Origin: an uncultured virus (IMG/VR IMGVR_UViG_3300035670_000104)
Taxonomy: Duplodnaviria > Heunggongvirae > Uroviricota > Caudoviricetes
Strand: one strand, 5' to 3'
DNA length: 30,643 nt
Virus record (IMG/VR): IMGVR_UViG_3300035670_000104
The first letter of the stretch is position 1. Each line of letters begins with the position of its first letter. The notes under the pieces were generated by a model. That model saw nothing but the letters and a program-made list of their open reading frames with translations. It was not told where the DNA came from and did not search any database. The translations under genes were made by a program, and so were the position numbers. Shown piece by piece: positions 18,117 to 26,056 of the stretch.

Positions 18117-18552
18117 TAAGTTTCTCCACGGTTGCACGGCAACCAACGCTAATTCCTGTAATCTCTTCATTCAGCACGGCTTGCCACAAAGCTTCACCAA
18201 CCTCTGTTTCAGGGAAATACCATTCGGTGAGCCAAGTACCTTTTGAGATAAACTTGTCACCAATATACATATCCACAGGGGTTGTATAGGACTGGATAAT
18301 CTCAGCGTCTTGTGTTTCAACCATGTGGAAGAGGTTAGCCTTCATGCAGTGTCGATTGAAATTCTGCATACCCTTTTCAATTTCTTTAGCAGAGTATGTA
18401 TCCCCATGAGCATCCACCTCATCTGGAGCAAGAACAACAAACAAAGCTTTTCTTTCAACCTCGTTTGCTGCCTTTTCAATCTTCACAACTTCCTTCTTGA
18501 ACAGAGGCTCAAGCACATCAGAAAGAGCTTTCTTCAAATCTTCAATATTCAC
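18109..18552 (-). CDS. Prohead protease (XkdF-like / Peptidase_S78_2)
   Basis: VLAPDEVDAHGD, NLFH, KGTW and EITGISVG motifs; between the portal and scaffold genes. Confidence 0.78.
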   Translation of the reverse strand: MNIEDLKKALSDVLEPLFKKEVVKIEKAANEVERKALFVVLAPDEVDAHGDTYSAKEIEKGMQNFNRHCMKANLFHMVETQDAEIIQSYTTPVDMYIGDKFISKGTWLTEWYFPETEVGEALWQAVLNEEITGISVGCRATVEKLSD

Positions 18553-20036
18553 TATGCTGACCCTTCCGCGTTCAATGCTGTGTTATCACGCCCACTCACT
18601 GTTTTTCTAGTTCCTTCTCCAGATGGGCTAGCTAATCCTTCAGAAGCACCAGATTGGTACTGTGTAAGCTCAGACAAGAATTCTTCTCTATCTTGATCTT
18701 CCTTGAATTGAGGAGTAATACCTCCCAACCTAGAAGTGACAAAGTTTACAGCTTCTGGAGTCTTGGGGAACAATCCAACAGCAGCAGTACGTTGAATGTA
18801 CTTACCAATCTCATCAAGTGATTCTTCGCTGACTTCGCCATATTCAAACTTAGGAGTGTCTGTAGTATCCCACCCGTTCAAGGCAAACAACTGAGGAATC
18901 AGGTCATGATTTAGTTGTTCCTGAATCTGTGTAAGACGAGCTTGAACCACCATCTTAGTGACGCTATCCAACGACTCGGCTAGAGAGAACGACCCACCAC
19001 CTTCTTGACCCAGAATCAATTGAGAAGCCATCAATCCAGTGACGATTTCTTTGCGGAAGCGAGAGATAATCTTGTCCGTGTCATTGGCCTTCTGTCCCAT
19101 CACGGAGATAGCTTCAAACTCAAACATCTTATGTCCCTTTTCATCTCTGAACATAGGGAGAATGATGCTAGACTGTTCGTTGTTATTGACACTCGACATA
19201 CCACGCTGGTAGTGAGCATAAACAGCCTTGTCTTCCTCTGAAGCCTCTGGGTTTAGATATTGCGGAGGAAGGTACAACACCTTCATACCACGAACATCGT
19301 TGCTTACAGACATAGCCTCGAACTCTTCAAGGGAAGTTTTATAGCGCCATGCTCTGTAAACACTCTTCAAAGGACTAACACCTTCTGGAGAATTCTTGTT
19401 AGAATTATTCTTCACCAGAAGGAACTTCTTACGAGGAATGAATGTTGGTTGATCTGTAGTGACAGAAGTAAAATCATTTCTGTTACTCACCATCGCCGGA
19501 GACTGATAAAGTCCATCCAAGTCTCTTCCATTGTTCTTGAAATTCCAAGACACAATAGTTTCTTGAGGGATAGGGGCTAGTTTCTTTAGACCAATCAAGC
19601 CATCATTAAACTTGCTACCCTTAGACTTCTCTCTGTACCGAAACACCTTCTCGGATACAGCGAATCCATATGAGTTATGTGTTCCAAGGTAACGAATAGC
19701 TTCAGCAAAAGGATGATCCATATCAATCATCACTTGCTTCAAGAAGTTCACCTGTCTTGCTTGTTCTTCTTCCTTACCAGGAGTGGCTGCAACAGTCCAA
19801 GGAACTCTAGCAATAGCCATTTCTACAGCAGCAACAGCAGGGGCAATTGTTGCATCCTTGAGCATGAGGGAATATGTTTGCATTGCAAAGGGCCATCGTA
19901 GAGCACGATTTTCTTCTTCTGCAATATTCCCTGCAATAACTCTCACCCCGTTATTACCTGTTTGGCTAAGGCGAATTTTAGGCGCTCCTTCTCGACTTTC
20001 TTGGAAGCCGTTTTCAGGAACAATGTCTTCTTCCAT
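18552..20036 (-). CDS. Portal protein (DUF935-like)
   Basis: 494 aa downstream of terL; GSFSLAE and LNHDLIPQLFALN motifs. Confidence 0.88.
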   Translation of the reverse strand: MEEDIVPENGFQESREGAPKIRLSQTGNNGVRVIAGNIAEEENRALRWPFAMQTYSLMLKDATIAPAVAAVEMAIARVPWTVAATPGKEEEQARQVNFLKQVMIDMDHPFAEAIRYLGTHNSYGFAVSEKVFRYREKSKGSKFNDGLIGLKKLAPIPQETIVSWNFKNNGRDLDGLYQSPAMVSNRNDFTSVTTDQPTFIPRKKFLLVKNNSNKNSPEGVSPLKSVYRAWRYKTSLEEFEAMSVSNDVRGMKVLYLPPQYLNPEASEEDKAVYAHYQRGMSSVNNNEQSSIILPMFRDEKGHKMFEFEAISVMGQKANDTDKIISRFRKEIVTGLMASQLILGQEGGGSFSLAESLDSVTKMVVQARLTQIQEQLNHDLIPQLFALNGWDTTDTPKFEYGEVSEESLDEIGKYIQRTAAVGLFPKTPEAVNFVTSRLGGITPQFKEDQDREEFLSELTQYQSGASEGLASPSGEGTRKTVSGRDNTALNAEGSA

Positions 20037-20057: not shown

Positions 20058-22547
20058 TTAGAGAGAAACAACTTTAGGTTCTCCAATTGCTTGTTGAAAA
20101 TTTTGAATACTTCCGAGGAAGTTTGGTAGAATCTGTTTAGATGCTAGGTAAGCGAAACAATCCGAAACGCAGTCAACAAGATCATCGTGTCCTGTCTCAC
20201 CTCTTCTTCTTTGCCCATCGAAGGCTTCAAGCTCCCTATAGAAGAAGTTGTTATCTCCTCGAATATTATTATCTAAATCGTGAGCACAATTCTTTAAGAA
20301 CTTTATTCCGCCGTTTTGAGCCATTGAGGAGGCTGGTCTAAATCTGTCAAGTTTCGACGTTGAAGCCCTCATTTTCTGTGCATACAACCCTGATTCCGCT
20401 AAATCTCTGATTAACAGAGTACATGCTGCCGCTGCCGCTGGGTTAGGGTCGCTTGGAATAAGAATATCCACATTTCTATGGAGTTCTTTATCTTCCATAG
20501 CATTGTCTATGATAAACTTCTGCCATTCCCCGAATCTTATTCTAGTCCTCTTAGCGTCCAAGATAAGATAATCTCCATTCCGCATCTTTGCCATCTTAAC
20601 AGTTGCCGTATAATCGGGGCTTGGATTGCTATCACTTTTTAAAGTTCCGGCAAAGTCATATGCTCTAACTATCTTAACAATCTGTGATTCATCATAACTA
20701 GACAACTCTTCACACCAACTTCTTTGAAAGAATGATGAGCTTTCGGGTCTTGCTTCCCAATTCCCAAACAACAGAATCTCTCGCTCTACACGAGGCAGTC
20801 CGTTTAGAAATGCAATGTAAGAAGGTTGAATGTATGGATTATCATATACCGAGGCACTAATGAATCTGAAAGAGAGAGGAATATCGTTAGGATATTTTTC
20901 TTCCAACTCCTCTTTAGTATCCGCCCAAATAAGTCCATCACTTGTTCTTATGAACCACCGGATGACTCCTTGTTTAGAAGGATCAGGTCTTCCATGATTT
21001 TCATGACCTTCTGGAAACAAATACCAGTCCACGTACTGTCTGACCCAGCTATCGGGATCGGGGTTCATAGTTGCCCGCATATTGGGCTTCATGTTAGCTT
21101 TTGTACGTAAACGAGACAGAATATAGTTAAACTGACTCTCTTCAAACTGACACAATTCCTCCATTACGCAGGAAGAAATTTGAGCACCTTGGAAGTTTCG
21201 AGTATCTTCTACTCTCTCAAAGTGGGAAAACGCCACTTCAGCACCACTACTAAACTGGTACTTTAAATCTTTAATCTTAATCCTACCACCGGGATCAATA
21301 TCGGTGTAGATTGTTTTACTTTCGTCCCACACAGCCCCTGATTTAAGTAACATAGGAGTTGTTCTACGCAATGTAAGCCCACGATATAGAGGGTCGTGAG
21401 TATATTTCAAGTGGTGCATAAGACCTGCAAAAGTGTTGTGGGTTACTACAAAATCGGTAGTAACAAACAATCTATCTCCTGTTACAGAAATGCATGTAGC
21501 TTCACCTTTACCTGCACACTCAATACTCTCAATTCGATTCCCAACATCTTTTTTAACTGTACGAGATTTTTTACGAGGTAGTCTGAATAGTTCTGTTTGA
21601 TTTTTACCACGAATATAGAGTACGTAGGCATCCTTACATACTACCTTTTCACCATCCTTATTGTAGAACGTTTTCTTGAAAGTTGTGGTTACTGTAAACC
21701 CAAGACTTCTGAGAATTTCGGTAACATCAGAGGCTAAAGAATTACTTACTGTACAGAAATATGTTTTACCGTCTTTTGAGACATATCCGTCTGAGTCCAT
21801 TAGACCTTGGATAAGGGAAAACCTATCTTCAATACTTGCTGTAAAATAATCTTGTGGAATAAATTTATCATGACTCTTTTTCATATATAAGTCATATCCG
21901 ATAACCGAATCTTTTACTCCGTCAACTCTATAGGAAATCCCTCCAGAGCTTTCCCACACAACAGTAGCATACCCATCATCGTTAACACTCTGAATAATCT
22001 CCTGATCTGTAGTTGTCAGAGATATGCAATCTCCTCGGAAACAACCATCTCCAAGCAAAAGACCCATAGTGTACGGTTTGATCTTCAGTGCTACCTTTTC
22101 ACCAAATTCCAAAGGTTCTGATAACTGCACAATCGGTAAATATTTTCTACCTGATTTCAAGTTTTGTCTGTCAATATATTCTTTAATCTCGATAGTAGTT
22201 TGAACAAGTTTCTTACCATCCTGACCAGCTTTATGAAACTTCCAAAGATGCTGTCCACAGCATTTTACTTTTCTACCGTCTTGGAAAATAACTTCATAAA
22301 TATCGACTTCGCCTTGTGGGAATACCCCTGTGATATACTGGACAGAGTTATCTGGTGCCACAATTTCTTGACCAATCTCACAACTTTCGATATTGACAAA
22401 CCCCCTTGGAGTCAACACCTTCTCACCATGGAGGAGTGCTTTTCCGCCACCTGCTTGTCCACCGTAGAAACAAATATCTACCCAATCTGGAGTTGTAAGA
22501 AACATCTCCTGTGGTTTGGAGGCTGGTGCGTATACTTTACGACTCAT
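20058..22547 (-). CDS. terL: Terminase large subunit, intein-containing precursor (829 aa; about 494 aa mature)
   Basis: Walker A GQAGGGK|T split by the intein; Walker B-like CVMEEL; coupling motif ATMNP; nuclease motifs RAYDFA and HDDLVD. Confidence 0.95.
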   Translation of the reverse strand: MSRKVYAPASKPQEMFLTTPDWVDICFYGGQAGGGKALLHGEKVLTPRGFVNIESCEIGQEIVAPDNSVQYITGVFPQGEVDIYEVIFQDGRKVKCCGQHLWKFHKAGQDGKKLVQTTIEIKEYIDRQNLKSGRKYLPIVQLSEPLEFGEKVALKIKPYTMGLLLGDGCFRGDCISLTTTDQEIIQSVNDDGYATVVWESSGGISYRVDGVKDSVIGYDLYMKKSHDKFIPQDYFTASIEDRFSLIQGLMDSDGYVSKDGKTYFCTVSNSLASDVTEILRSLGFTVTTTFKKTFYNKDGEKVVCKDAYVLYIRGKNQTELFRLPRKKSRTVKKDVGNRIESIECAGKGEATCISVTGDRLFVTTDFVVTHNTFAGLMHHLKYTHDPLYRGLTLRRTTPMLLKSGAVWDESKTIYTDIDPGGRIKIKDLKYQFSSGAEVAFSHFERVEDTRNFQGAQISSCVMEELCQFEESQFNYILSRLRTKANMKPNMRATMNPDPDSWVRQYVDWYLFPEGHENHGRPDPSKQGVIRWFIRTSDGLIWADTKEELEEKYPNDIPLSFRFISASVYDNPYIQPSYIAFLNGLPRVEREILLFGNWEARPESSSFFQRSWCEELSSYDESQIVKIVRAYDFAGTLKSDSNPSPDYTATVKMAKMRNGDYLILDAKRTRIRFGEWQKFIIDNAMEDKELHRNVDILIPSDPNPAAAAACTLLIRDLAESGLYAQKMRASTSKLDRFRPASSMAQNGGIKFLKNCAHDLDNNIRGDNNFFYRELEAFDGQRRRGETGHDDLVDCVSDCFAYLASKQILPNFLGSIQNFQQAIGEPKVVSL
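21435..22439 (-). mobile_element. Class 3 intein with LAGLIDADG homing endonuclease (335 aa)
   Basis: Begins with Ala (ALLHGEKVLTP), ends VVTHN|T. WCT signature: HLW (block B), ATCISV (block F), THN (block G). LAGLIDADG motifs GLLLGDG and GLMDSDG. Confidence 0.92.
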
Positions 22548-22601
22548 CCTACTTTCCCTTCATAAATTACTTCTACAACATTACGTTGTGCGATAAATAC
22601 A

Positions 22602-22630
22602 ATTTTATCATTAGTCATAGAATTTGTCAA
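22602..22630 (-). promoter_or_regulatory. Sigma70-type promoter upstream of terL and the structural operon
   Basis: TTGACA-17 nt-TAAAAT with extended -10 TG. Confidence 0.8.
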
Positions 22631-22661
22631 TAGGGTATTCACTTTATTTTGATTATTTCTA

Positions 22662-23027
22662 TCAAATACTTTGTTGAATATTCTTTACAGCTTCAAGATA
22701 ATCCCTCACCATCTTGTCGCGTTCCCTCCCCTTAATACCAAGCAAAGCAACAGACTCACGAAATTCCTCAAAAGTCATGCAATTTAGCTCAGACTCTGTA
22801 TAAATTCGATGATCTGGAGGATAAGCACGAATAGCTTCATTACTCACCAAAGGCTTCTTAGGGTCTACCAGCAAATCCAACTCAGCAGAGAATGGGGCGA
22901 ACAAACGTGGTACTGTATTCTTACGCATCTTAGCACCCATAGCACCAAGTCTAATTAGCTCTTCCACAAATCGTACTCTGTCTGCTGTAAACACCGTAAT
23001 CTTCTGATTTACTTTTTCAAATTCCAT
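22662..23027 (-). CDS. Hypothetical protein (121 aa)
   Basis: Start placed at MEFEKVNQK (SD AAGGAAG); the longer ORF start lies inside hairpins. Confidence 0.7.
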   Translation of the reverse strand: MEFEKVNQKITVFTADRVRFVEELIRLGAMGAKMRKNTVPRLFAPFSAELDLLVDPKKPLVSNEAIRAYPPDHRIYTESELNCMTFEEFRESVALLGIKGRERDKMVRDYLEAVKNIQQSI

Positions 23028-23042
23028 AACTTCCTTTTTATA

Positions 23043-23278
23043 AACAGCTAAAGCTCCGCGAAGGAGCTTATTGAAATTAATCCCGCTTACCATCCTGCGG
23101 GGCTATTCTTTAGCGATAGCGGATTAATAAAAGCTGTACATTTGAATCACGGACTAATGTACAAATGCCGGGGAAGTTACAAATAATTATTCTTTCTGAT
23201 AGTTGGCGCTATTCAGTCTAAGTAATTTGGTAGCGTATAACTTCCCACCTTAGCCGTAAGTTTTGGTCCTAAGGCTTA
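23043..23278 (-). ncRNA. Putative structured RNA (multi-hairpin)
   Basis: No credible ORF; stems CCTTAG/CTAAGG, GGGAAGTTA/TAACTTCCC, GTACATT/AATGTAC, CAGCT/AGCTG, TTAATCC/GGATTAA and AAGCTCC/GGAGCTT. Confidence 0.5.
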
Positions 23279-23280
23279 TT

Positions 23281-23436
23281 AGATTTCAAGGGCAGGTACT
23301 GAACTCCTGCATGATCCTACTAAGATTAGCAATGTCTTAATACTCTCCGAGACACACCCAGCCTCTATCAGAGTTGCAAGCTATTTGCGGTAGCTTTTCT
23401 CTGGTCATATCAGCCTATGCATTCCTTGAAAAATCT
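23281..23436 (-). ncRNA. Putative tRNA-like RNA with a large internal insert (element B)
   Basis: 7-bp terminal stem TTCAAGG/CCTTGAA stacked on a T-arm-like GCAGG-AGTTCAGTA-CCTGC; second stem ATGACC/GGATCAT encloses two hairpins. Confidence 0.5.
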
Positions 23437-23443
23437 GCAATTT

Positions 23444-23593
23444 TCAAAACACAGTGTCAATACACTCTTCAACCGTCTTGCCATCAAGATAAGCTTCTTG
23501 AATATCTGAAATGAAGATATTAACTTGCTTCTCTGTATAGCCGTACTTTACAGCCATTGTCTTTACGCTCTCGTAATAGTCTTTAAACGTCAT
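23444..23593 (-). CDS. Hypothetical protein (49 aa)
   Basis: MTFKDYYESVKTMAVKYGY...; the upstream part of the listed ORF overlaps the neighbouring gene. Confidence 0.6.
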   Translation of the reverse strand: MTFKDYYESVKTMAVKYGYTEKQVNIFISDIQEAYLDGKTVEECIDTVF

Positions 23594-23601
23594 AACACTT
23601 A

Positions 23602-23865
23602 CTAAATTAACGAGTATCCGCCCTCGAAAGCATCGGCGGGCGAGTACGACTTGTAGCCGTCCTCGTAGACCACGTAGTAGCCGCCAACCTGGGGCTTGTG
23701 CTTGAAATACCAATCCGCTGACACAGGAAGCGGACCATAGTCTGCATCCTCAAACTTCAGAATGGCGAACTCGCTATTCGAAGAACCTTCTCCAATGGCT
23801 TTGATCTTCAGCGCCCACACCTTCTTGTGACACTGGTATTTTGGCATTTCTCTTTGTACATTCAT
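23602..23865 (-). CDS. Conserved phage protein (GYYVVYEDGYKSYSP motif)
   Basis: 87 aa, SD AAGGA; motif recalled from many phage proteins; visibly GC-richer than its flanks. Confidence 0.75.
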   Translation of the reverse strand: MNVQREMPKYQCHKKVWALKIKAIGEGSSNSEFAILKFEDADYGPLPVSADWYFKHKPQVGGYYVVYEDGYKSYSPADAFEGGYSLI

Positions 23866-23875
23866 AATTGTCCTT

Positions 23876-24223
23876 TCATTCCTTCTTAGGCATGTGAAGC
23901 TGGAACACTACAGCTCTCTCTGTCTCTTCTTCCTCTACAATGGAGGCTTCTGCTCTAGCGTCATCAATCTCAGACTTCTTGCCCTCCTCCTCAGCTTGAA
24001 CAACCTTGTGGAACTCCTTAGCAGAAGTGATTGTCCATTTAGCTGTGGAAAGCTGTTCCTTGTCTACAGGCTTTCCGTCAAGACTATCTTGCACAAGCTC
24101 CATAGCCGTTGTCTCAGCCAATTGCTTGAGCCTAGCTGCCACTTTACGTAGCTTAGAGGCTTTAGTTCCTACAGAACCAAATGGGCGTCCACGAGGACGT
24201 TTTTCTTGTTGTACTGCTGTCAT
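23876..24223 (-). CDS. Candidate terminase small subunit / DNA-binding protein
   Basis: 115 aa with N-terminal AT-hook-like KRPRGRP, helical middle and acidic tail; about 1.3 kb upstream of terL. Function is inference. Confidence 0.45.
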   Translation of the reverse strand: MTAVQQEKRPRGRPFGSVGTKASKLRKVAARLKQLAETTAMELVQDSLDGKPVDKEQLSTAKWTITSAKEFHKVVQAEEEGKKSEIDDARAEASIVEEEETERAVVFQLHMPKKE

Positions 24224-24528
24224 TGTTGTTCAAACAGTCTAGATTTCAACTCGTATCCCATATAACCCCAGAGGTCATTCTTAGAGTTCTCTACAGCGAT
24301 TTTCTCACCAATCTCCGCATTGTCGTTGGCGCTAGAAGCACTAGCAGATGGCTTTCCTGCAAGGGAGAAACCATTCTTTGTAGTCAACACAGCCCAGCGC
24401 AAGACTTGCCCTGAAACAGATACATGCTTAACAATCTCTACTGATACGATATTATCTTCCAAGTCCTTTAATGAAACTCTAGGAGCTGTAAGATTCTTGT
24501 TAACAATTTCTTGTTCGATATTTTCCAT
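24220..24528 (-). CDS. Phage Gp49/Gp66-family protein
   Basis: LTAPRV, LTTKNGF..G..SASAS..NDNAEIGEKIA and LW...GYEL match the recalled Phage_gp49_66 pattern. Confidence 0.78.
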   Translation of the reverse strand: MENIEQEIVNKNLTAPRVSLKDLEDNIVSVEIVKHVSVSGQVLRWAVLTTKNGFSLAGKPSASASSANDNAEIGEKIAVENSKNDLWGYMGYELKSRLFEQQ

Positions 24529-24872: not shown

Positions 24873-24948
24873 TGGAGCAGACGATCGGAATTGAACCGAC
24901 AACCACTGATGTGGAAAAACAGCGCTCTGCCAATTGAGCTACATCTGC
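24873..24948 (-). tRNA. tRNA-Gly(TCC)
   Basis: 76-nt cloverleaf: acceptor GCAGATG/CGTCTGC, anticodon loop TTTCCAC, T-loop TTCAATT, U73 discriminator, encoded CCA. Confidence 0.92.
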
Positions 24949-25158
24949 AATAAAACAGGAGTTTTGCACATTAACCAATACCGAAATATTGAAGTGTCTC
25001 CTGTGTGTTAAATATGCCCCGTAAATAGCCGCAAAGAACTACTCTGCCGAGGACTTTAGCTTACGTCTAAGCCTTCTTTCTTAAATATTAAAGTTCAACC
25101 CCTGTCCAAAACAACAATTGAAGTTTATACAGGTGTAGAGGCGACATCAGAAAGAACA

Positions 25159-25446
25159 TCACCGAATACTCTCATAAGGGAGAATTGACTCTCCTCGATA
25201 ATACAGAAATGCACAGTAGTTAGCAACATCCACTACATTTCCCTTTTCTACACTAATATGAAGAAGATTGCTTAGATGTTGTTGGGTACATTCCTCCGTA
25301 TTAAATCCTGAGTACCCTTGCTTACTCTTCTGGACTAGCCGAATCTTTTGCACCTGACTAAGATTGTCTACTGCATCCTTTTCAATCTCAGCTTCTACAA
25401 TTTTCTCAGGTTCCCAAGCTTCTCGTTGTGCATCATAATGTCCCAT
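25159..25446 (-). CDS. Hypothetical phage protein (95 aa; KG..VDVANY motif)
   Basis: Start ATG 25446 with SD AGGAG, overlapping the end of the upstream gene. Confidence 0.7.
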   Translation of the reverse strand: MGHYDAQREAWEPEKIVEAEIEKDAVDNLSQVQKIRLVQKSKQGYSGFNTEECTQQHLSNLLHISVEKGNVVDVANYCAFLYYRGESILPYESIR

Positions 25447-25624
25447 TATACAACTCCTTAGCAAAACCATCTACAATTGCTGTGTAGCCATACTTCTTCT
25501 TAGCATCGGCGTAGCTATCGGCCTTACCAATTTCCTTCATTGTAACTTCGTATTGTGCCTCACCTTTGTGGTCAACACCTGCCTTACGATAGGTCGGCAT
25601 ATATACGGCGATTTGCTTCTTCAT
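25433..25624 (-). CDS. Hypothetical protein (63 aa)
   Basis: Strong SD AAAGGAG and ATG start. Confidence 0.7.
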   Translation of the reverse strand: MKKQIAVYMPTYRKAGVDHKGEAQYEVTMKEIGKADSYADAKKKYGYTAIVDGFAKELYNGTL

Positions 25625-25684
25625 TTACTTTCTCCTTTGTTAATAATCAAACTTCTTTTTCAGATAAACTTAAATTGAATTGAA

Positions 25685-25864
25685 TGGGATAGGTGGATTC
25701 GACACCACAACATCCTATTAGCCCGGTACTGTTTTCATTGACACAATTGCCGTACTCGCGTAATACAACTAATAAGTTTGCATTAGTTTTAGACAAGACA
25801 TCTTATCATGCTTTGGAGATTAATGCATCTCTCCTAACAATACTTTCAATCTTTCTACTATCCC
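25685..25864 (-). ncRNA. Putative mini-tmRNA-like / tRNA-like RNA (element A, 180 nt)
   Basis: Acceptor-like stem GGGATAG/CTATCCC plus A; stemless D-loop; long P2 (AGTATTGTTAG/CTAATAGGATGTT); H-type pseudoknot GGAGA/TCTCC plus ATGC/GCAT; T-arm GTGG-TGTCGAAT-CCAC; 35 nt downstream of tRNA-Arg. Confidence 0.6.
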
Positions 25865-25899
25865 AAACAGAAGAACTCTCGGTAAAGAATGCTTTTGTT

Positions 25900-25976
25900 T
25901 GGTGGGCGGCGAGGAATTCGAATCCCCATAGTTCGAGGTAGAAGCTCGATTCATTGTCCAGTTATGATAGCCGCCC
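25900..25976 (-). tRNA. tRNA-Arg(TCT)
   Basis: 77-nt cloverleaf: acceptor GGGCGGC/GCCGCCC, anticodon arm TCGAG-CTTCTAC-CTCGA, T-loop TTCGAAT, 3' ACCA. Confidence 0.93.
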
Positions 25977-25981
25977 AAAAC

Positions 25982-26056
25982 TGGTATGGCGTGTTGGTTT
26001 CGATCCAACTACCAAAGTCTTATGAGGACTCCACTCTCCCATTGAGTTAACGCCAC
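25982..26056 (-). tRNA. tRNA with CAT anticodon (Met or Ile2)
   Basis: 75-nt cloverleaf: acceptor GTGGCGT/ACGCCAT, anticodon arm GAGTC-CTCATAA-GACTT, T-loop ATCGAAA, 3' ACCA. Confidence 0.9.

Follow-up and report, generated by a model that had tools for sequence, protein, structure and literature searches.

Genes and structured RNAs at the locus

The window, by which we mean the whole 30,643-nt stretch of DNA analysed here, is phage DNA, and the genes around the element under study lie on its minus strand (Table 1). The large terminase carries an intein, with the Pfam LAGLIDADG homing-endonuclease domains PF14528 and PF05204 at residues ~230–319. The 121-aa protein encoded next to it has 124 homologues (E ≤ 0.001), mostly of 121–123 aa. 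Because of these lengths we place the start of its gene at the ATG at 23027, which is preceded by a ribosome-binding site, and because the gene starts there, the element falls in a 416-nt non-coding gap (23028–23443) bounded by a small ORF and the 121-aa gene. The 121-aa protein has no match in PHROG or Pfam, and from its typical position alone the gene is a small-terminase candidate. A near-consensus promoter-like site was seen on the minus strand between this gene and the large terminase (22602–22630; TTGACA, a 17-nt spacer, TAAAAT and an extended TG, 11 of 12 matches).

Upstream of the element, a two-ORF cassette is inserted between it and the 115-aa gene. The cassette is skipped exactly by an independent DNA contig (X5, described below), is missing from the relatives L005, L007 and L009, and has a G+C content of 0.45–0.49 versus ~0.40 in its flanks. 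Part of it (23611–23868) is ~79% identical to 9 Ralstonia phage records, and its 87-aa ORF matches phrog_11049, a family without assigned function. The cassette looks like a recently acquired moron. Farther upstream ARAGORN finds three tRNA genes (24873–26056), the nearest of them 1.4 kb from the element; Rfam searched over the whole window at the gathering score returned two tRNAs and nothing else.

Table 1. Features of the locus, in window coordinates
Feature	Position	Strand	Remarks
Portal gene	18552–20036	−	
Large terminase gene	20058–22547	−	LAGLIDADG intein
Conserved 121-aa gene	22662..23027	−	Immediately upstream of large terminase
Conserved ~240-nt RNA	23040..23280	−	Directly downstream of the element; also in L005/L008, L007 and L009
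Element (flagged in the original prediction)	23281..23436	−	Read 23436 to 23281; ~150 nt, helix-closed, multi-branched
Closing helix, 3′ strand CCUUGAAA	23284..23291	−	Pairs with UUUCAAGG
3′ hairpin GCAGG-AGUUCAGUA-CCUGC	23292..23310	−	5 bp, 9-nt loop
Variable middle	23313..23403	−	Predicted hairpins 23403–23369, 23365–23349 and 23347–23313
5′ hairpin CAUA-GGCUGA-UAUG	23406..23419	−	4 bp, 6-nt loop; in minimum-energy fold
Closing helix, 5′ strand UUUCAAGG	23424..23431	−	Followed by conserved linker AAUG
Two-ORF cassette	23437..23873	−	87 aa at 23602–23865, ~48 aa at 23444–23590
Conserved 115-aa gene	23876..24223	−	Placed by alignment, the L007 sequence and the X5 joint
Element A	~25690–25868	−	Directly after tRNA-Arg

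Predicted architecture of the element

The original prediction described the element as a tRNA-like RNA, and all of the sequence pieces it named are found on the minus strand. Its terminal stem, said to abut a 5-bp hairpin, corresponds to the closing helix followed without any linker by GCAGG/CCUGC, an arrangement that recurs in the relative L007; the closing helix is present in the minimum-energy folds of both copies. The two inner hairpins it proposed (CAGAG..AAGCUA/UAGCUU..CUCUG and UAAGA/UCUUA) both occur in the minimum-energy fold as well. Two other parts of the model have to be replaced. The ~14 nt described as an unpaired 5′ linker hold the CAUA/UAUG hairpin, which is in the minimum-energy fold and carries compensatory changes in L007, and the proposed P2 helix (AUGACC/GGAUCAU) competes with that hairpin, is absent from the minimum-energy fold and has no L007 counterpart.

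The hairpins of the variable middle are predictions of the minimum-energy fold only, and their structure has no comparative support because the sequence is unalignable with the corresponding 60 nt in L007. In folds of the ~400-nt context the element forms a separate domain upstream of the ~240-nt RNA. Its ends are terminal inverted repeats, TTTCAAGG and CCTTGAAA (8 bp), in both copies, extending to 13/15 in the window. The loop letters GCU of the 5′ hairpin and AGY of the 3′ hairpin are complementary in both copies and could allow an elbow-like loop–loop contact. A target search found no stretch of at least 12 nt complementary to the element elsewhere in the window or in L007.

Layout and fold energy compared with chance

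We found that the fold of the element is within the range of shuffled sequences. For the plus strand the z-score of the fold is –1.55, with 13 of 200 shuffles folding equally well, and for the minus strand it is –1.04 (30 of 200); z-scores give no support on either strand or in either copy. A whole-window descriptor scan for a 7-bp helix with an abutting 5-bp hairpin returned 26 instances (30 dinucleotide shuffles: mean 15.9, maximum 30); with a 5′ hairpin also required, 9 instances were found (mean 5.2, maximum 11). The layout of the element alone is within chance. Selection is visible only via comparative data. Of the conditions named as refuting the original prediction, a fold no better than that of shuffled controls was found, and a loss of the stems in relatives was not, as the flanking stems are conserved in L007.

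Comparison with the L007 copy

The relatives that cover the site are L005 (here identical with L008), L007 and L009, with 61–65% identity in the 121-aa protein. Searches anchored on the 121-aa and 115-aa proteins gave 2 IMG/VR records, and a metagenome scan gave 6 contigs, 4 of them covering the site. The locus of the closest relative, L006 (97%), starts inside the ~240-nt RNA, short of the element site. A search of a genome collection for relatives returned one irrelevant MAG match.

L007 has a homologous insert of 111 nt at the equivalent site (L007 1803–1925). Its termini are identical to those of the window copy (TTTTCAAGGAATGC ... GCCCTTGAAATC); the middles are unalignable. Folded independently, alone and in ~400-nt context, the two copies reach matching end architectures: the closing helix, the AAUG linker, a 4-bp hairpin with a 6-nt loop, a variable middle, and a stacked 5-bp hairpin with a 9-nt loop. 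All 8 pairs of the closing helix are identical between the window and L007. In the 5′ hairpin, which reads CGUG-AGCUAA-CACG in L007, 2 of 4 pairs are altered on both sides and none is broken. In the 3′ hairpin (L007: GCUGG-AGAUAAGCG-CCAGC), one A-U pair of the window is U-A and the inner G-U is G-C.

Over the three shared helices (18 pairs), 36 of 36 cells pair, with 3 two-sided changes (A-U to G-C twice, A-U to U-A once), 1 one-sided change (G-U/G-C) and 0 broken pairs. The hairpin stems carry 7 substitutions in 20 columns, a rate like that of the loops, and simulated random changes keep 10 of 10 hairpin pairs with a probability of 0.0007 (uniform) to 0.006 (2:1 transition bias). In a shuffle control 60 of 500 alignments reach the observed covariation, which is the floor for two rows (~1/8); the power of the covariation test is minimal because only two divergent copies are available. 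Judged by these paired substitutions, the two flanking hairpins are shown to be under selection to pair. The invariance of the closing helix would follow from RNA pairing, but equally from sequence-specific recognition or from a recent common origin of the ends. The sequence comparison as a whole indicates that the element is a real, discrete folded non-coding module.

We weighed against this the view that the element is a functionless spacer between mosaic modules, its ends shared through recent recombination and its hairpins intact by luck. The weak fold statistics would suit a spacer, as would the number of known alleles (two) and the fact that three lineages dispense with the element, and the 3′ flank (AAAUC.AAUAA.CCUUAGGAC) is highly similar between the window and L007, which could mean recent exchange. 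However, loops and stems are ~35% diverged with pairing intact, unlike the product of recent exchange, the 10 hairpin pairs show 3 compensatory changes and no break, and the two alleles independently fold to one end architecture. We therefore regard a spacer as rather unlikely. Were the element inert after all, it would stand as a caution that chance produces acceptor-plus-hairpin layouts at about the frequency observed here.

Tests of membership in known RNA families

The original prediction expected tRNA finders to miss the element, and ARAGORN was indeed negative in every mode: 0 genes were reported in both copies whether it was run on its defaults, with introns permitted, at lowered thresholds or with -ps90, and its tmRNA mode with a lowered threshold found no match. 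The Rfam tRNA model RF00005 gave no match at the gathering score and none at E ≤ 10. At E ≤ 10 the 176-nt query matched no tRNA, tmRNA or Y-RNA model, and across the 801-nt query, the 176-nt query and the L007 copy we obtained junk only (miRNA, snoRNA, IRES and an 18-nt rydB hairpin). By these searches the element is not a tmRNA (ARAGORN tmRNA mode and Rfam both negative) and not a Y RNA or YrlA (no Rfam match at E ≤ 10), and the proposed comparison with the Y-RNA and tmRNA models yielded nothing at that threshold.

Inspection of the loops led to the same result. A canonical T loop (7 nt, UUCRA-type, with G53-C61) is ruled out by a 9-nt loop, which reads AGUUCAGUA in the window copy and AGAUAAGCG in that of L007. 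The two loops agree at A1, G2, U4, A6 and G7 only, and the GUUCA pointed out in the original prediction is not conserved between them. A D-loop GG is ruled out by the 5′ loop, where GGCUGA of the window is replaced by AGCUAA in L007. In both copies the 7–8-bp helix directly abuts the 5-bp stem and is followed by AUCU or AUCA, not CCA; read from the sequence, CCA follows 2 of the 3 real tRNAs of the window. The plant-mitochondrial t-element motif of the T arm, GGTTCRANYCC as given in PMC1920247, is missing from both copies. As for a miniature inverted-repeat transposable element, inverted repeats are present, but many copies in different contexts and clear target-site duplications were not found in the window or in the IMG/VR scans. 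The tRNA mimicry originally proposed therefore survives in part: the stack of helix and hairpin is loosely like that of an acceptor stem and T arm, but mimicry in the strict sense fails on ARAGORN, Rfam, the loop, CCA and GG.

One hairpin of L007 (1893–1910, GCUGGAGAUAAGCGCCAG) resembles a hairpin in the model of the E. coli sRNA rydB: 16 of 18 positions agree, and the two mismatches preserve a base pair. This 18-nt 3′ hairpin scores 18.9 bits with RF00118 (gathering score 50, E = 0.097), and the window copy gives no match; the likeness is probably a coincidence. We conclude that the element is outside the catalogued Rfam families.

Phage T4 offers the closest layout. Its rnaC (species 1) and rnaD (species 2) are phage-encoded, non-decoding stable RNAs of 119–139 nt, located on the same strand as and downstream of a tRNA cluster. 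As a comparison of layout only, T4 rnaC folds like the element: a hairpin stacks on the closing helix, and the insert is large. The element could, by this likeness, be a free-standing, trans-acting tRNA look-alike that, for instance, engages a host tRNA-binding enzyme or a defence nuclease as its decoy or cofactor. An acceptor-like helix, a stacked hairpin and a large insert speak for this, as does the GCU/AGY loop complementarity read from the sequences. However, the T arm of T4 rnaC is canonical (CCGGG-UUCGAAU-CCCGG) and its fold z-score is –4.57, whereas the loop of the element has 9 nt that do not fit the consensus and the z-score is about –1. The element also has no T-loop consensus, CCA or anticodon-like feature, it is negative in ARAGORN and Rfam, and a promoter or terminator of its own was not found in the scan. 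Unlike in T4, the nearest tRNA gene is 1.4 kb away, and a structured RNA follows directly. With these differences a look-alike acting in trans appears decidedly improbable. The function of T4 RNAC and RNAD is itself described as still unknown (PMC9697503).

Presence and absence of the element

Of twenty public runs with all or part of 23031–23600, four may be the source sample; we examined contigs of four others, X5, X7, X8 and X12. Run X5 is labelled as an organism and not as a metagenome, so that a culturable host may exist. The DNA contig X5 matches 23242–23436 and then jumps to 23874–23919. Because this independent contig joins 23436 to 23874, position 23436 is a true edge of the element, and the end coordinate originally proposed is correct. 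In the relative represented by X5 the element begins 2 nt past the stop of the 115-aa gene, and nearly so in L007; in the relatives the distance between stop codon and element is 2–6 nt. Contig X8 covers 23142–23373. X7, a 211-nt metatranscriptome contig, equals 23238–23432 exactly, although neither transcription nor RNA ends or levels can be read from an assembled contig. Its last 16 nt are an inverted copy (fold-back) of 23425–23440, which could be an assembly or cDNA artefact at the end of a molecule. No other part of 22600–24300 of this phage is assembled in that run.

The window-type allele is thus found in the window, in an IMG/VR record (G001) identical to it over this stretch, and in X5, X7 and X8, and the other allele in L007. 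The element is missing in three lineages (L005/L008, L009 and X12). In L005/L008 and L009, conserved non-coding sequence comes immediately after the stop of the 115-aa gene. X12 is 99% identical to 23081–23254 and then passes into the element-less sequence type, with a stop codon directly before the downstream RNA. The element is dispensable, because three lineages keep the downstream RNA without it. Presence is linked to the type of that RNA: carriers of the element share one variant of its first hairpin (CCUUAGGAC...), and element-less sequences have the other (CCUURGGGCC...UAUAGUUGCUUAAGG). In X12 the breakpoint between the types with and without the element is inside this first hairpin, away from the element ends.

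Further copies were sought widely. A search of the window by the element termini found no second copy. Pattern scans derived from the element over 2.9 million viral contigs (IMG/VR) returned only the window's own record as a true match, and degenerate scans for each hairpin with its terminus returned that record only. Two-termini scans of IMG/VR gave 7 loci, the window's own record and six that look like chance: four are chance-like matches in G+C-rich sequence, L013 falls within an ORF of 580 aa, and L014, in the intergenic space that separates portal and head-morphogenesis genes, has a rod-like fold lacking the two hairpins. GenBank phages gave no match to the window or L007 copy. No clear target-site duplication was found, the L007 flanks AGAAT/CAAAT being a 3-nt repeat at best. 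From the position of the X12 breakpoint and the lack of other copies we infer mosaic recombination of diverged modules, not transposition.

These data also bear on whether the element is selected as DNA, as a selfish or recombination module with its ends acting as terminal inverted repeats and its subterminal hairpins read as DNA. Such a module would account for 8-bp inverted-repeat ends that are invariant in two phages whose other helices covary, for middles that differ wholly between copies, and for presence in some lineages and absence in three at one site. However, the window holds a single copy, no other context was found in IMG/VR or GenBank phages, a target-site duplication is not clear, the X12 breakpoint lies off the element ends, and no transposase gene is nearby. 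We consider a DNA-level module distinctly unlikely.

The adjacent ~240-nt structured RNA

Directly downstream of the element lies a conserved RNA for which RNAalifold gives 47 consensus pairs with 12 two-sided changes over four sequences, many of the pairs being G-U on the minus strand. It has no Rfam match. A scan of IMG/VR for this RNA returned the window's own record, the record of G002 and one G+C-rich chance match, so that 2 IMG/VR records carry it and 1 carries the element. The ~240-nt RNA is the best-supported novelty of the region, ahead of the element. Its conserved, G+C-rich terminal hairpin (AAGCUCC-UUCG-CGGAGCUU, 23069–23051) lies just ahead of the ribosome-binding site of the next gene and was not called in the terminator scan. 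The space that separates this hairpin from the 121-aa gene is a hot spot where the relatives have additional genes and the window has none: L005 (2205–2504) and both L007 and L009 (2176–2511) have one extra ORF each of 99–111 aa, and L006 has ~2.4 kb extra (93–2492) with ORFs of 246, 437 and 89 aa.

The position ahead of packaging genes raises the question of a cis-regulatory leader, in which the element and the downstream RNA would control read-through into these genes by antitermination or in a riboswitch-like manner. In all relatives the locus does end in the conserved G+C-rich hairpin, with the ribosome-binding site of the next gene just behind it, and a survey of IMG/VR includes candidate structured RNAs that consistently lie upstream of terminase genes (PMC10690425). 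However, the hairpin is not scored as a terminator, and folds of ~400 nt show no alternative pairing between element and hairpin, the element folding separately. In the relatives at least one extra gene separates the hairpin from the 121-aa gene, and a strong promoter-like site occurs farther downstream (22630–22602). Control of this kind is, in our estimation, very improbable.

In a bolder reading, phages of this group would have a bipartite RNA locus placed between the operon with the tRNAs and the packaging genes: an undescribed ~240-nt RNA class and a swappable, tRNA-shaped 5′ module whose stack of helix and hairpin is tied to the other hairpin by a GCU/AGY contact. With its invariant stem and variable middle, the module would either enable release of the RNA by host tRNA-processing enzymes or itself be a non-decoding tRNA look-alike. 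This we hold to be rather unlikely.

A possible role in transcript punctuation

The reading that we favour, tentatively and at somewhat less than an even chance, is that the element is a selected, folded RNA domain that forms an optional 5′ module of the RNA locus and may serve as a punctuation or stability signal. Its action as a minus-strand RNA is inferred from the orientation of the genes, one G-U/G-C pair and the strand of the neighbouring RNA. Most likely, the element would be made within a long transcript that also bears the phage tRNAs, in which it would be positioned between the stop of the 115-aa gene and the ~240-nt RNA that precedes the packaging genes. The stack of helix and hairpin may then mark a cut site, at which host tRNA-processing or other endonucleases would split the upstream mRNA from the downstream RNA; alternatively, the stack may protect new RNA ends. 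A nuclease mechanism specifically would take perhaps half of the probability we give to the reading as a whole.

The element exists in two alleles at one site, is missing in three lineages and goes together with one of the two types of first hairpin in the downstream RNA, which is in line with an optional module of this locus. Against the favoured reading, no promoter-like site was found near the element on the minus strand, there is no CCA, and the loops are without the T-loop and D-loop features used by tRNA-processing enzymes. RNase P is known to measure the acceptor/T-stem stack and to cut several non-tRNA substrates (PMC4919913), and tRNA-like t-elements set mRNA ends in plant mitochondria, where they have been proposed, and partly shown, to direct the RNase P and RNase Z cuts that make these ends (PMC1920247). 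Like the element, t-elements are non-canonical tRNA-shaped folds located in long transcripts beside coding regions; unlike it, they are defined by the T-arm motif GGTTCRANYCC (PMC1920247).

YrlA has a long Ro-binding stem. In this it differs from the element, whose end helix is stacked on a hairpin. Both YrlA and tmRNA are non-coding RNAs that join a tRNA-like module to a large non-tRNA part (PMC4201824). The 10,006 candidates described from IMG/VR in PMC10690425 are uncatalogued phage RNAs supported by covariation, some of them tRNA-like and some upstream of terminase genes. The element is best described as new among phage-encoded tRNA-shaped or structured non-coding modules.

If a cutting or stabilising signal is the true role, the idea of tRNA punctuation known from organelles would extend to phage operons, and the element would offer a way to approach what the neighbouring RNA does. 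Many folded RNAs of phages are nameless in databases and few have a known role; here the gain and loss of a module can be traced among related phages.

Element A

The original prediction grouped the element with a second one, element A, as members of one family of tRNA-mimic RNAs. The sequence comparisons show no such relationship: the two are without shared sequence, BLAST finds no counterpart of element A in L005, L007 or L009, and the search of the window by termini gave no second copy of the flagged element. No gene is called in element A by ARAGORN, and its fold z-score is –1.54. In layout, a 7-bp GGGAUAG/CUAUCCC helix abuts a 4-bp hairpin with the loop UGUCGAAU, and the insert is ~150 nt. 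This loop is nearer to a real T loop than that of the flagged element, and the position of element A after tRNA-Arg recalls T4 rnaD and rnaC.
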